The translations under genes and the position numbers were made by a program. From IMG/VR virus record IMGVR_UViG_3300006810_000004, positions 1 through 57,977 of that record: a stretch of 57,977 nt of DNA; one strand, written 5' to 3'. This stretch comes from a virus (taxonomy: Duplodnaviria; Caudoviricetes). The first letter of the stretch is position 1. Every line of letters begins with the position of its first letter. Below, one piece after another: positions 614 through 15,890 of this stretch. The notes beneath the pieces are model-generated. The model ran no database searches. It saw only the letters and a list, made by a program, of their open reading frames with translations, and was not told the origin of the DNA.

Positions 614-1519
614 TTATGCTCCAGGGGAACCGAAAATACCTCTAAAGTCTGAGAATCCAAATGAATATCTCTCTCTAGCTTTGTATTTCACGTTGCCTGT
701 TTCAAAGTCGCCTTCCATTTTAGTTTGGATGGCTGCTCTTTGAAAGTGCTTTAACCCGTTAGGTGCATCAGTCTTGATAAAGAACGCGTCTGTATCAGTT
801 AAGTAGTTATTCACTACGTAACCTTATGGAATCATTCCCATGCTTCCAACTGCGTTGATATGGTTATCTGAAGTTCCTACTCTTTGATTAGACTTCATAA
901 GTCTTTCAGCAGTGAATTGAAGATTAACTGGAATAATTAATTTACTACCGTTAAGAGCGACTTTTAAGCCTCTGTCATCAGTAATTCCAGCAATGTCAAT
1001 TAATGCTTGCTCAAGAGATGTCTCGTTAAGATCAGCTGCAGTAGCTAACTCATTCGATACAGTTCCGCCAGTTGTAGGGTGGTCAGTAGCACAAAGCTCT
1101 ATACCATCTCCACCTGTAAAGCTACTGTTAAACGCATTATTTAATACGTTAGCTGCTTTAACTTGCTTGGCGTTACTCATTGAACGGGCTAATGCCTTAG
1201 TGTAACGAGAACTGATTTTGTCATAAAGGTTATCCTCTACGGCTTCCTCAGTAATTGCGAAAGCTAATGCTACAGTTTCGTGTGTATAGCGAGCAGTGAA
1301 AGACTCAGTAGCGTCATCAAAATTAACTGATCCACCTTCTGGTTTTACCTGTGCTGAACCGAAACCGGAAAGCATTACTTCTTCTTCAAATGCACGATCA
1401 GAAGTTTCTGTATCAAAAATTTCTGTGTGCTGGTTTTCATATCGGTCATACTCTAACCCAAACAAAGCGTTAAGGCCTGGTTCAAGTTCTTTGACCAATT
1501 GTGATCTAGATATTGCCAT
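614..1519 (-). CDS. Major capsid protein (Mu gpT-like, 301 codons), interrupted by one in-frame TAA at 824-826
   Basis: MAISRSQLVKELEPGLNALFGLEY N-terminus and KARERYSFGFSDFRGIFGSPGA C-terminus are in one frame; ORFs 824-1519 and 614-814 join as MIP*GYVVNNYLTD. Confidence 0.92.
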
Positions 1520-1531
1520 GTTATTCTCCTA

Positions 1532-2627: not shown

Positions 2628-3571
2628 TACTCCTTCACGTATTTCGCATATTCTTCTAGTGGCACACCTAATTTTTTAGCTATTGCTACCTGAGAGGGTG
2701 TGAGTCTAACAGTTTTGCGTCCAGTTCTTGAGGTCCTAGTAGCGGATGCAACAGTCTGAACGGGTTTGTTGCTTCCCTGGACTTCCCCACCATCATTAAA
2801 TTTGTGAGGGAATTCTGTTCTGATGCGTTTATCAACTTCATCATAATACTCATCTGAAGTAGGATCATATCCTTCTTGTTCGACAAGTTTTTTGTGGATA
2901 CCGAATGAAGCATAAGTCATTGTTTCATCTTTACCAAACCATTCGTTCTTTTCAGCCCAAGCTTCAGCACGAGGGTCTGGTTTCGGTGTCGCTACATTAT
3001 TTTGTACAGGTTGTTGCACTACTTGTCCAGCGTTATCTGCTTGATCAGCGGTGGTTTTTCTTTGTACTTCAGTAGCTTTAATACGTTCTTCTTCAATTGC
3101 TAACTTAGCAAGAAGCTGATTAGCACTTACTTGAGCATCAATATCTCCTTTAGCTACAGCATTTTTTAAATTGTTTTTTGCTGATTCTAATTGAGATTGT
3201 ACTCTTCCTGTAAACTCATTAACGTATCCGTCATCTAATTCTTTAAATTTACCTTCAAGAGAATCTTTTTCTTCTTTAATCTTTTGAGCAAACTGAACTG
3301 CCGCTTGTTCTCTTCGTTCTGCTTCACGAATTTTATAAGTTAAACGATCAATTCTTTTTTTAACTCCATCGCTATATTCTTCTCTTTCGTCTTTTACTTC
3401 TTCTTTAGCTTCAGTGTTTTCTTTTACTTCAATTGCTTCTGATTTTGTTTCTTCAACTTTAGAAACATTTTCTTTATCTTTTAACTCAATATCAACAGAG
3501 TCTCCTCCGGTATCTAATTCTACCATAGGGTCTGCCTTATTGGTTTCTATTTGTGTTTGTGGTTGTTGCAT
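2627..3571 (-). CDS. Putative capsid scaffolding protein
   Basis: Charged coiled-coil; C-terminal LTPSQVAIAKKLGVPLEEYAK helix; position in head module. Confidence 0.7.
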   Translation of the reverse strand: MQQPQTQIETNKADPMVELDTGGDSVDIELKDKENVSKVEETKSEAIEVKENTEAKEEVKDEREEYSDGVKKRIDRLTYKIREAERREQAAVQFAQKIKEEKDSLEGKFKELDDGYVNEFTGRVQSQLESAKNNLKNAVAKGDIDAQVSANQLLAKLAIEEERIKATEVQRKTTADQADNAGQVVQQPVQNNVATPKPDPRAEAWAEKNEWFGKDETMTYASFGIHKKLVEQEGYDPTSDEYYDEVDKRIRTEFPHKFNDGGEVQGSNKPVQTVASATRTSRTGRKTVRLTPSQVAIAKKLGVPLEEYAKYVKE

Positions 3572-11423: not shown

Positions 11424-11669
11424 CTACCAGTTGCGACCGCAACCTGATGCAAAGTAAATAGCATTACCCATTATTGTTTGACCCGCAATAAGGGACGCGC
11501 CAATATTAAGAGGCAGACCTTTAAGTAATCCCTCTTCGTCTACCAGTAACTTACCTAGACCTTTAGGTAATCTTACTACTTCAACATAACCGCCAATTAT
11601 TTCTTGGGCTTCGCGTAGATCGATCTTTTCCTTTTTATCTTCTACTACTTTTAAGATAGCTTCTTGCAT
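11424..11669 (-). CDS. DUF3846-family protein (start revised from 11684)
   Basis: LREAQEIIGGYVEVV...LLVDEEGLLKGLPLN...IMGNA; GGAG SD precedes the ATG at 11669. Confidence 0.8.
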   Translation of the reverse strand: MQEAILKVVEDKKEKIDLREAQEIIGGYVEVVRLPKGLGKLLVDEEGLLKGLPLNIGASLIAGQTIMGNAIYFASGCGRNW

Positions 11670-11694
11670 AGTTATATTCTCCATTTCTATAATA

Positions 11695-11723
11695 ATTATA
11701 TATTAATGAGATAGTGGAACAAG
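11695..11723 (-). promoter_or_regulatory. Early promoter CTTGTT-N17-TATAAT
   Basis: Consensus -10; TATCTCA in the spacer. Confidence 0.7.
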
Positions 11724-11811
11724 GATAATATAACGGTGGTGCCTCTCCACCGAACAAGGCTAATATTACGACGAGCTCCGCGATATGCTTTTTGTAAATT
11801 TTGAATAAGGT

Positions 11812-11875: not shown

Positions 11876-12919
11876 TTAAGCAACAAGAGATAAGGCAGTA
11901 TTCATAGCCTTAGTTTTTACATTGTCGATACCATTGCTAGTAAAAGTATTTTTTAATCTAGCGCTAGTGTTATCGATACCGCCTCTTAAATGATCTTCAT
12001 TATAAGTAACACAATTAAATGCTTTCCATAATGTATCATTACGAACCGCGTTCCCTGTATTTTGAAGTTTGAGAGTTTTACCGTTGCTCTCAATGCAATC
12101 ATTCCAAATACCGTAACATCTTTTTATTTGTTGATTACCTGATAAACCATTAAAAAAAGAATAATCTTTTTTACCGTGTTTATCGAACTCAGATACTAGC
12201 TCTTTGTTCCCGTAAACCAAAATAAAATACTTTAATAGATCTTGCTCTTTAAGTTGAACTCCATCAAGAGCTAGAGCTTGGTCTTTGTATTCTTCATTTG
12301 ATTTAAGCGCCATATCAATTCTATTTTTAATCAAGTTTTCAAGATTAGAATTAAATTCTATTCTATGAGTAATTGAAACCATGAATTGATCATTATCTTT
12401 AAGCGCCTGCATATAAGTATTGGAACACCAAATAGAGATATTAGTGGTATTAATTTTGGTTTTATCTCTACCAGTGTGAAAGTTGCTAAACATTAAATAG
12501 TTTTTAACAACATCATCACCAATATTAAATGAACCGTTTGTATTAGCTAAAAAAGTAATAGCTTTGTCATTGTCATAACTAAAACAATGTTCAAAATGAA
12601 TACCAGCTTTTTTAGAAAAATGATCTCCCATTTCTGCAAGTTTGTTATTTTGCATTGGGTGATACTGATTAGTTAAACCGCCAACTAAAATTTCTTTTTT
12701 ATCTTTTACAAGATTAAAGAATTTGTCAGATGTGATTGTTTCACCATCGTGAGTAGATTGAGCTGGGGTCATTTGAACATTCCAATCCAATCCCGCATTA
12801 TTCATAAGTTGTGAACAATCCATTTTTTCACCGACGGCGCTAAATTGAGACAATCCCTTTTTAGTTAAATCTAAAAGAGATGTCCATTTGTAGTTTTCGA
12901 TTTTTTGGTTCATAGGCAT
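11876..12919 (-). CDS. DUF932-family phage/plasmid protein (start revised from 12934)
   Basis: AGLDWNV, YHPMQN, YLMFSNFHTG, IWCSNT, TLWKAFNCVTYNEDH; SD before the ATG at 12919. Confidence 0.8.
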   Translation of the reverse strand: MPMNQKIENYKWTSLLDLTKKGLSQFSAVGEKMDCSQLMNNAGLDWNVQMTPAQSTHDGETITSDKFFNLVKDKKEILVGGLTNQYHPMQNNKLAEMGDHFSKKAGIHFEHCFSYDNDKAITFLANTNGSFNIGDDVVKNYLMFSNFHTGRDKTKINTTNISIWCSNTYMQALKDNDQFMVSITHRIEFNSNLENLIKNRIDMALKSNEEYKDQALALDGVQLKEQDLLKYFILVYGNKELVSEFDKHGKKDYSFFNGLSGNQQIKRCYGIWNDCIESNGKTLKLQNTGNAVRNDTLWKAFNCVTYNEDHLRGGIDNTSARLKNTFTSNGIDNVKTKAMNTALSLVA

Positions 12920-12944
12920 AGTTATATTCTCCATTTCTAATAAG

Positions 12945-12973
12945 ATAATATATAATTGGGATACTATTGCAAG
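12945..12973 (-). promoter_or_regulatory. Early promoter CTTGCA-N17-TATTAT
   Basis: TATCCCA in the spacer; same architecture as the other early promoters. Confidence 0.65.
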
Positions 12974-13006
12974 TATTATTTAACGGTCGTAGAATAATGA
13001 TTATAG

Positions 13007-13185
13007 TTAGAATGATCGTGATGATACGCGCTACATATCTTCTACTACCCTCGCAAACCAAGATCTCTCTATTTTTAGCAAACTTATAAACTCTATAGCG
13101 TTTACAAATCGTTTTCTGAGTATATATCATTTCAACTCAACCACTGGCTTCATGATTTCGGGCTCACCGTTCACGATCATTCTAA
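13007..13185 (-). ncRNA. Candidate ~180-nt structured ncRNA
   Basis: Exact 15-bp inverted repeat (13007-13021 / 13171-13185) closing internal stems with G-U pairs on the minus strand; promoter-like CTTGAA...TATTAT immediately upstream. Confidence 0.55.
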
Positions 13186-13247
13186 TTATAATATCGAAAC
13201 ATTTTCTATTTTTTCAAGTTTTTATTCAACGGTCGTAGAATAATGAT

Positions 13248-13508
13248 TTATTTTAAAACGGGATTGAATTTCTTAATATTAAAACTATCTATCAAAGATT
13301 GCATTTCTTTTTTTTTTTCTTCATCTTCCATAGTTTTAATGACGGTCGCTAGATCAGATATTGCTTTTTGATATCCGCCTAAATAAGACTCATTATTTGA
13401 ATAATCTGTATGATCATAATGTCTATCATCTTTATTATCCATTATTTCTTCTTCCGCTAATAGATTATTTTTCATTCTATTTATAAGTATTGCTAATTTT
13501 TCGTTCAT
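13248..13508 (-). CDS. Hypothetical early protein, probably leaderless
   Basis: 86 aa; CTTGAT-N17-TATTAT ends 6 nt before the ATG and there is no SD. Confidence 0.75.
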   Translation of the reverse strand: MNEKLAILINRMKNNLLAEEEIMDNKDDRHYDHTDYSNNESYLGGYQKAISDLATVIKTMEDEEKKKEMQSLIDSFNIKKFNPVLK

Positions 13509-13556
13509 GGTTTTATAATATATAAATGGGATATTAAATCAAGTTTTTATTTTGGA

Positions 13557-14033: not shown

Positions 14034-14062
14034 TTTTTAAGTCCTTCCTATATTATCCCATA

Positions 14063-14091
14063 ATCTTATTACTTAAATAAGAAATTGTCAA
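14063..14091 (-). promoter_or_regulatory. Early promoter TTGACA-N17-TAAGAT
   Basis: Perfect -35; followed by TATGGGATA; 20-bp identity with the site at 15177-15196. Confidence 0.7.
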
Positions 14092-15156: not shown

Positions 15157-15187
15157 GGTTTTTTATTCCTTTCTTAATTATCCCATA

Positions 15188-15216
15188 ATCTTATTATTAT
15201 ATGATAACTTGTCAAG
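15188..15216 (-). promoter_or_regulatory. Early promoter CTTGAC-N17-TAAGAT
   Basis: Matches the alphaproteobacterial CTTGAC -35; followed by TATGGGATA and an AAGGA SD. Confidence 0.7.
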
Positions 15217-15798: not shown

Positions 15799-15890
15799 AT
15801 CTTATATATATGAGATAAAAGTAAAATGTCAACCCTTAAAATAAAATTATTTTATTCTTGTATTATCCCATATTAATATTATATAAATAA
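15799..15890. promoter_or_regulatory. Divergent early promoter pair
   Basis: Minus: TTGACA at 15827-15832 with TATCTCA in the spacer. Plus: CTTGTA at 15857 with TATCCCA in the spacer. Near-palindrome ATCTTATATATATGAGAT at 15799-15816. Confidence 0.65.

Follow-up and report, generated by a model that had tools for sequence, protein, structure and literature searches.

An accessory, apparently non-coding cassette of a marine pelagiphage relative, closed by a long stem and carrying a hairpin found widely in phages

What occupies the space between two early genes of a marine phage, and would it act as RNA? The window analysed here is the complete 57,977-bp viral record IMGVR_UViG_3300006810_000004, which has direct terminal repeats and carries nearly all its genes on the minus strand. 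Its large terminase (TerL) shares 61-67% identity with the TerL proteins of HTVC027P and HTVC023P, two Pelagibacter phages, and by its sequence the phage appears to be a marine SAR11-type relative of the HTVC023P-type pelagiphages. An earlier note, made from the letters alone, had proposed at this locus a stand-alone non-coding RNA (ncRNA) gene reminiscent of 6S RNA. On the minus strand the locus runs from an 86-amino-acid (aa) open reading frame (ORF) through a 21-bp repeat, a promoter-like site (promoter P1), a 179-nt element, four bases, the second 21-bp repeat and promoter P2 into a gene for a DUF932 protein. The best reading of the 179-nt element, in our view, is an accessory, non-coding and presumably transcribed unit of HTVC023P-type pelagiphages.

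Folding energy singles out the two ends of the element. On the minus strand these are exact 15-nt complements (Table 1), as the earlier note had described, and they would pair into a closing stem, P1. The whole unit folds at -49.0 kcal/mol (z -3.53) on the minus strand compared to -34.3 kcal/mol (z -2.65) on the plus strand, which bears out the earlier choice of strand. Stripped of its arms, the interior scores -0.52 in the window and -0.07, +0.03, +0.83 and -0.36 in the other members of the family described below, values like those of shuffles, so the folding-energy signal belongs to the closing stem only and the z-score proposed as a check holds for the unit as a whole and not for its interior. 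For the same reason the inner stems drawn at first, GCCC/GGGU and AAGCCAG/UUGGUUU, lack support of their own, and the latter is absent from the minimum-energy fold, a multibranch loop closed by stem P1. Arms, repeats, promoter-like site and strand had thus been seen correctly, and these inner stems are not supported. We do not claim two further helices, P2 and P3: each lineage allows them to be drawn, but from non-homologous segments and with no energy support. Nor do we claim a pairing between the loop of hairpin H1 (see below) and the stretch before it: within the family it gives A-U, G-C and G-U pairs and a mismatch in L056, and across 36 hairpin contexts pairing between flank and loop is not enriched.

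The element has relatives, all of them in relatives of one phage family. Scans of viral and metagenome collections with the core pattern, with both arms, or with the core plus the 3' flank returned every time the same four lineages: the window (with L103), L056 (=L102), L086 (=L101) and L071 (~L104), L numbers being our labels for loci. They contain five distinct element sequences, all placed near the end of the early region, ahead of the terminase. When L056 and L086 are compared by blastn, only one match reaches E<1e-5: the 5'-most 113 nt of the element, at 94.7% identity. From one lineage to another, similarity does not extend past the outer ends of the arms, and each lineage has its own sequence upstream of the 5' arm; a discrete, conserved unit, as expected from the earlier reading, was recovered together with the homologs it called for. 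A DUF932 gene again lies downstream of the element in L086 and L071; in L056 the 3' arm is directly followed by AAGGAG and an ORF of 80 aa, and there the element would be a 5' leader. A blastn search of GenBank phages found nothing resembling it. The 15-nt arm alone hit 33 contigs, all but L056 by chance (single arm only), and the arm-gap-arm pattern nine, of which three are true members with one arm pair each and six are chance matches in GC-rich coding DNA. The complete 57,977-bp record holds one copy.

Comparison among these sequences, rather than energy, appears to uphold the two hairpins that had been recognised within the element, UGAGU/ACUCA (H1) and GAUUUGUAAAC/GUUUAUAAGUU (H2). The H2 helix has 11 bp in the window; in the type shared by L056, L086 and L071 a 1x4 internal loop separates two helices of 5 bp. 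The two types differ by two double changes (A-U to G-C) and a further single one, and no pair is broken. Four pairs of H1 are invariant within the element family. The arms of stem P1 pair over 13-15 bp in all four lineages: their 11-nt core, AAUGAUCGUGA, is invariant in all five sequences, and at their outer end a double change has turned a G:C pair into C:G and an A-U pair has become G-U (L086, L071). Since there are about three independent lineages and the register was set by hand, the covariation counts for P1 and H2 are suggestive, not statistical.

No ORF is conserved in the element across the family, and its sequence makes a coding role unlikely. The overlapping 89-aa ORF, named beforehand as the gene that might refute a non-coding reading, starts with ATG in the window, but L056 and L086 have ACG there and their frame meets a stop within 14 codons. 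Of the frames shared between lineages the longest is MIVNG.... It might be a small, possibly leaderless protein gene (36-46 aa in L056 and L086) that has become a pseudogene in the window; we give this very little credence. It stays open over 36 aa in L056 and 40-46 aa in L086, and in its first 29 codons the window and L056 are separated by six synonymous changes at third positions and by several conservative replacements. Yet it is broken by an in-frame TGA in the window and L103 and by a +1 shift in L071, and the substitutions that distinguish the window from L056 are distributed 10:4:10 over the codon positions, which is not significantly uneven. When L056, L086 and L071 are compared, one stretch of 65 nt hardly varies at any codon position, and the changes, most of them non-synonymous, are concentrated in one short segment. 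The frame has no Shine-Dalgarno site, though neighbouring genes have GGAG, and a database of 5.8 billion clusters holds no protein of 25-81 aa sharing three 5-residue words with it.

The neighbouring DUF932 protein led to 24 related viral loci, and the element is absent from all 24. In most of them the slot is taken by an intrinsic terminator with a promoter of the same type behind it (terminators are seen there in L003, L004, L006, L009 and L014), and in L003, which has a homolog of the 86-aa ORF, the terminator follows that ORF where the window has the element. A terminator also occupies the slot in the contig L105, whose terminase region is 95.8% identical. Neither the 86-aa ORF nor the element nor DUF932 is present in L105, and its similarity to the window resumes at 13006, one base outside the 3' arm. 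In run X4 one contig likewise joins 13006 to 13546, and there is nearly no cover over the element, with the gap at 13005-13111, while runs X1 and X2, both probably DNA, cover it; the data of runs X1-X4 being contigs, they show neither RNA ends nor levels. Absence from all 24 relatives and from the close L105 indicates that the element is an accessory cassette, polymorphic in nature, and the two junctions at 13006 mark its 3' end as an apparent recombination boundary. A close relative, L002, carries at 2505-2745, upstream of its DUF932 promoter, a different, strongly structured unit of ~230 nt with a 13-nt closing inverted repeat (z -4.45 on the gene strand, -5.39 on the other) and no Rfam match.

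Hairpin H1 belongs to a class that reaches far beyond this family. We defined the class on the transcribed strand by the loop core UGAAAUGAUA followed by YAY, closed by a U-A and a G-C pair and a further complementary stem. H1 has the exact 17-mer with three further pairs and one G-U, and it is the sole copy of the class in the window genome. Its 21-mer core occurs in 37 viral contigs, 32 of which form one group of close relatives of the window phage; in these, GGGGAGU-loop-ACUCCCC followed by a U run stands 13 nt after the major head gene, and two complete relatives have exactly one copy each, behind the capsid gene. At the same post-capsid place the window has a plain GGGGGC-UUCG-GCCCCC hairpin. 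The 17-mer GTTGAAATGATATATAC is more frequent (95 viral contigs, 60 distinct flank contexts). At least three extra pairs extend the stem in 40 of these contexts, compared to 9.8% with flanks re-paired at random, and at least five in 22 of them (3.6% at random). Each of the first three stem positions shows all four Watson-Crick pair types. Mean helix length rises from 2.87 to 3.78 when G-U pairs are allowed and to 2.97 with A-C, the wobble of the other strand; as G-U lengthens the helices and A-C does not, the hairpin would act on the strand corresponding to the minus strand of the window. Contexts without a stem lie mostly inside long ORFs and represent the chance background.

Members of the class are found in recurrent settings. 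Behind capsid genes the hairpin stands 13-27 nt after the stop codons of major head genes (phrog_371, phrog_1328, phrog_10 and phrog_138), and one further stemmed copy follows a terminase gene. In one capsid family it is present in 14 of 56 distinct 3' tails; the loop core UGAAAUGAUA (TGAAATGATA) is kept in all 14 variants of this 3' untranslated region (3'UTR), the last three loop bases vary as YAY, and U2:A16 has become G:C in three of the variants (L184, L185 and L196). Where the UGAAAUGAUA hairpin is missing from tails of this family, another conserved hairpin, UUUCACCURGU..GUCCYAGGAAAUUU, stands before the terminator, in the 130 nt that follow the stop (L206, L208, L211, L214, L219, L220, L230, L244, L247, L259 and others), so that two alternative modules occupy one slot. 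The class also occurs in tRNA arrays of mostly large contigs, many of them >100 kb, where it is co-oriented with the tRNAs in all 12 loci examined and sits in an unannotated stretch of ~300-500 nt that shares further conserved blocks. These stretches (L121:567-1032, L122:787-1326, L130:1628-1973, L157:596-1057, L137 around 2850-3350, and others) contain YAUGGCUGW, the class hairpin and CGUUAUAG...ACGUUARAU; they match no Rfam family even at E<=1 and no GenBank phage.

Searches for a known counterpart of the hairpin gave little. A 41-nt query around H1 met only chance matches inside coding genes in GenBank phages, and no Rfam family covers any site of the class; on family members and hairpin loci Rfam placed tRNAs and one group I intron only, none at the hairpin. 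Within 70 nt of the hairpin, flanks do not pair with the loop above shuffles (upstream mean 5.64, shuffled 6.33). A scan of bacterial genomes returned six contigs. Two of them (L115 and L117) are hairpin contexts, one beside tRNAs; one match lies in another coding frame, and three, in related Desulfobacterota (L113, L116 and L118), place the 21-mer core on the opposite strand of a recJ-like frame (..EYISFQLAPRLNAAGRM..); we reject all four as coding coincidences. The loop sequence was absent from the literature searched, which yielded one unrelated 12-mer match. The class is widespread in phages and apparently undescribed, though it may already be among the 8,495 models in a published set of predicted structured RNA candidates from the intergenic regions of IMG/VR (PMC10690425). 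That set has the same data source and includes short covarying viral motifs, some with terminators and some near tRNAs; a capsid-3'UTR hairpin is not mentioned in the main-text passages available. PMC12379486, in the part available, covers only Rfam ncRNAs, in cellular genomes, and the text of PMC9599517 has no mention of promoter, noncoding, intergenic, hairpin, tRNA or RNA polymerase. The combination of a free stem with an invariant unpaired loop suggests a recognition site, employed on strongly expressed phage RNAs, for a trans-acting partner, protein or RNA, and as the phages that carry it are unrelated, this partner is probably a host factor.

The surroundings of the element are built from repeated parts. 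The 21-bp direct repeat AATCATTATTCTACGACCGTT that was said to bracket the unit has exactly two copies in the window, with none expected in shuffles even with three mismatches. The second copy is part of the DUF932 promoter module. L105 has this module but not the element, and L003 has it in a more diverged form. A promoter module of ~75 nt, including the leader and the six first codons MENITM, is repeated at 12916-12990 before DUF932 and at 11666-11740 before the next gene, upstream of 11684, with a third, partial copy at promoter P1 (13188-13248), and both DUF932 and the next gene, DUF3846, start with MENITM. This repeated module is likely a substrate for cassette shuffling. The element lies in the early or hyperplastic region of the phage and is bounded by a repeated promoter module, in keeping with the repeat-bounded early cassette of the earlier note. 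Another early promoter-like module, TTGACA ... TAAGAT TATGGGATAATA, has three copies (14034-14080, 15159-15205 and 15855-15890), and at L105:3040-3085 five tandem 9-nt units (TCTATTAAT-like) lie just upstream of another promoter-module copy.

Promoter P1 itself is present where it had been placed, yet such sites are frequent here (55 found, 34 +/- 5.7 expected in 8 kb). Its start, predicted from the consensus match only, would be at ~13181, within the 5' arm, and its -35 region is common to the window and L002. A formal scan finds a promoter beside the element in two of the four lineages, the window and L086, where the -10 hexamer ends 2 nt and 5 nt upstream of the 5' arm, respectively; upstream of the element L056 has TTGACT, a 15-nt spacer and TATAAC, which does not pass the scan. 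Taken as DNA, the inverted repeat is 22 nt long with one mismatch and overlaps the -10 box.

On balance, we think that the element functions at the RNA level; the mechanism that we propose, an accessory early RNA working through the putative partner of H1, is more tentative and we would not call it probable. The minus strand would be read from an early-type promoter whose TATTAT ends 2 nt before the 5' arm, giving an RNA of ~160-180 nt with its ends paired in a 12-17-bp stem P1. This stem would close a largely unstructured interior presenting H1 and H2, with the UGAAAUGAUA(YAY) loop of H1 shown unpaired to the trans-acting partner. The RNA would then hold or titrate the partner, or recruit it to the transcript, early in infection, and stem P1 could serve as a protected 5' end and possibly as an RNase III-type processing site. 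In an alternative form, the element would be the leader of an early message acting through the same hairpin partner. A bolder proposal, which we regard as speculative and rather unlikely, is that the hairpin, on any stem and with its UGAAAUGAUA-YAY loop, constitutes a new and widely shared module of phage RNAs that a single conserved cellular factor reads: phages would put it behind their most-expressed late gene and in large tRNA-array RNAs, and the pelagiphage cassette would be a portable early small RNA that presents the module in trans and captures or redirects the factor before the late genes.

Several observations weigh against an early RNA of this kind. For P1 and H2, covariation was counted by hand on about three independent lineages and the numbers are small, and without its arms the interior of all five family members is no more stable than dinucleotide shuffles. 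The 11-bp core of stem P1 is invariant while the interior differs by ~26%, a sequence-specific constraint that a role at the DNA level would explain equally well; the inverted repeat also reaches 7 nt into the -10 box, DNA that would not be transcribed. The formal scan finds no promoter adjacent to the element in L056 or L104. L056 and L086 have a U-to-C change in the otherwise invariant core of the H1 loop, and the partner of H1 is putative in both existence and identity. Finally, the sole true RNA run, X3, gave one contig here (12765-13015), which includes only 9 nt of the element and is possibly DNA carry-over.

Among the rival explanations, the one we take most seriously, while holding it to be less than probable, is that the element acts in cis as a segment of adjacent messages, either a 5' leader or the 3' tail of the 86-aa gene, that stabilises, processes or insulates early mRNAs; stem P1 would be a 5' protective stem or an RNase III site, and H1 would play the role it has behind capsid genes. 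The arrangement in L056, where the 3' arm runs directly into AAGGAG and the 80-aa ORF, is consistent with this, as is the position upstream of DUF932 in two of three independent lineages. The window has no terminator between the 86-aa ORF and the element, where element-less relatives have one, the X3 contig spans from inside the 3' arm over promoter P2 into DUF932, and the commonest context of the hairpin is a 3'UTR. However, in the window and L086 a separate DUF932 promoter module stands between the element and the gene, and the downstream genes differ among lineages. In L071/L104 a terminator-like hairpin precedes the element (seen by eye; eight pairs, weak T run), which fits a unit of its own.

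A cassette acting at the DNA level and without RNA function is improbable in our estimate: it would be an inverted-repeat mobile or recombination module resembling a miniature inverted-repeat transposable element (MITE), or a pair of protein-binding sites, transferred between phages by recombination at the promoter modules. It would account for arms more conserved than the interior, for the exact end of between-lineage similarity at the arms, for position 13007 as a breakpoint in two variants, for the continuation of the inverted repeat into untranscribed DNA, for the direct repeats and the thrice-repeated promoter module around the cassette, and for its uneven presence among natural populations. 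Of the features of MITEs the element shows terminal inverted repeats (13-15 bp, four lineages), but it has a single copy per genome and no target-site duplication common to the lineages (the flanks of the window, L056 and L086 differ). No clean empty site was seen, because element-less variants also lack the neighbouring gene, and no transposase was found among the eight neighbouring proteins scanned, a scan of the neighbours and not of the whole genome. Compensatory changes in H2 and in the H1 class, and G-U pairs that work on one strand, are also unneeded by a DNA site. The resemblance to a 6S-like decoy of RNA polymerase fares worst, and we see almost no room for it. 6S RNA folds into a rod with a closing stem, a large central bubble and a terminal stem; the element shares a size of ~180 nt, ends in a long stem and the proposed holding of a cellular factor. 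Its predicted fold is instead multibranched with no helix-flanked central bubble, so the closing-stem-plus-bubble layout described earlier does not hold, its interior is not stable, and it is dispensable in close relatives and confined to few phage lineages. Rfam 15 gave no match at gathering score over the whole window, and at E<=10 its five matches in 12700-13500 include neither 6S nor any that matches the element.

The preferred reading, an accessory non-coding transcription unit, can also be set against other known systems. Correia (nemis) elements of Neisseria are short non-coding inverted-repeat units that are co-transcribed with neighbours and whose repeats pair as an RNase III substrate. 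The element is likewise short, non-coding and bounded by inverted repeats, but differs in having one copy per genome, no target-site duplication, and an interior that is conserved and contains covarying hairpins. Promoter-early stem-loop (PeSL) cassettes populate the hyperplastic regions of T4-type phages; here, too, repeated promoter modules flank small early cassettes that vary between close relatives, although the cargo is a conserved non-coding unit with a long-range stem and not an ORF. In the boxB hairpin of lambdoid nut sites, a sequence-specific loop on a stem of free sequence is read by a trans-acting protein soon after an early promoter. H1 resembles it as a specific loop on a free stem close to an early promoter, with a putative trans-acting reader, and differs in that the loop of its class has 13 nt instead of 5 and that the same hairpin lies behind capsid genes and in tRNA arrays; we know of no N-like protein here. 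Retron ncRNAs (msr-msd) combine flanking inverted repeats with an adjacent reverse transcriptase gene. We rejected this identity: the inverted repeats are present, but the same eight neighbouring proteins contain no reverse transcriptase domain. A replication origin was rejected too, given that the skew has no turn at 13 kb and the element is dispensable.

SAR11 phages are among the most abundant viruses on Earth, and the literature searched held nothing on their non-coding RNAs. A portable, promoter-driven RNA cassette that varies between near-identical phages would be a candidate device for host takeover or counter-defence at the RNA level. The hairpin connects three settings not linked before, namely capsid mRNA tails, tRNA-array RNAs and a putative early small RNA, and its 13-nt loop offers a short exact bait for fishing out the partner.

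Table 1. Features of the element and its surroundings in the window (all on the minus strand).
Feature	Position	Strand	Remarks
Conserved non-coding element, 179 nt	13007..13185	minus	Homologs in L056, L086 (=L101), L071 (~L104); near-identical in L103
5' arm of closing stem P1, TTAGAATGATCGTGA	13171..13185	minus	Exact complement of 13007-13021
3' arm of closing stem P1, TCACGATCATTCTAA	13007..13021	minus	Outer end is the apparent recombination boundary
Hairpin H1: UGAGU, loop UGAAAUGAUAUAU, ACUCA	13117..13139	minus	Exact 17-mer once in the window
Hairpin H2: GAUUUGUAAAC, loop GCUAUAGA, GUUUAUAAGUU	13081..13110	minus	Compensatory changes relative to relatives
Direct repeat 1, 21 bp, AATCATTATTCTACGACCGTT	13228-13248	minus	Directly after the stop of the 86-aa ORF, upstream of promoter P1
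Direct repeat 2, 21 bp	12982-13002	minus	Native upstream part of the DUF932 promoter module
Promoter-like site P1, TTGAAA-18-TATTAT	13188..13217	minus	10/12 in consensus scan (sigma-70-like)
Promoter-like site P2, TTGCAA, 16-nt spacer, TATTAT	12945..12972	minus	9/12; DUF932 gene
Upstream 86-aa ORF	13248..13508	minus	Member of a variable block; no terminator behind it
Downstream DUF932 gene, 352 aa	11876..12934	minus	Pfam PF06067, E 1.1e-17; phrog_1221 (unknown function)

As for the neighbouring genes, the 86-aa ORF matched no Pfam and no PHROG family. The literature listings contain nothing on the function of DUF932, no solved structural relative was found, and its Atlas neighbours are other DUFs. 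Elsewhere in the window, the major head gene (632-1528, minus strand) is split by a GAA-to-TAA change in this record: an in-frame TAA stands at 824-826, where six relatives have Glu (IPEGYVVN), and it may reflect a sequencing error, a defective variant or read-through.

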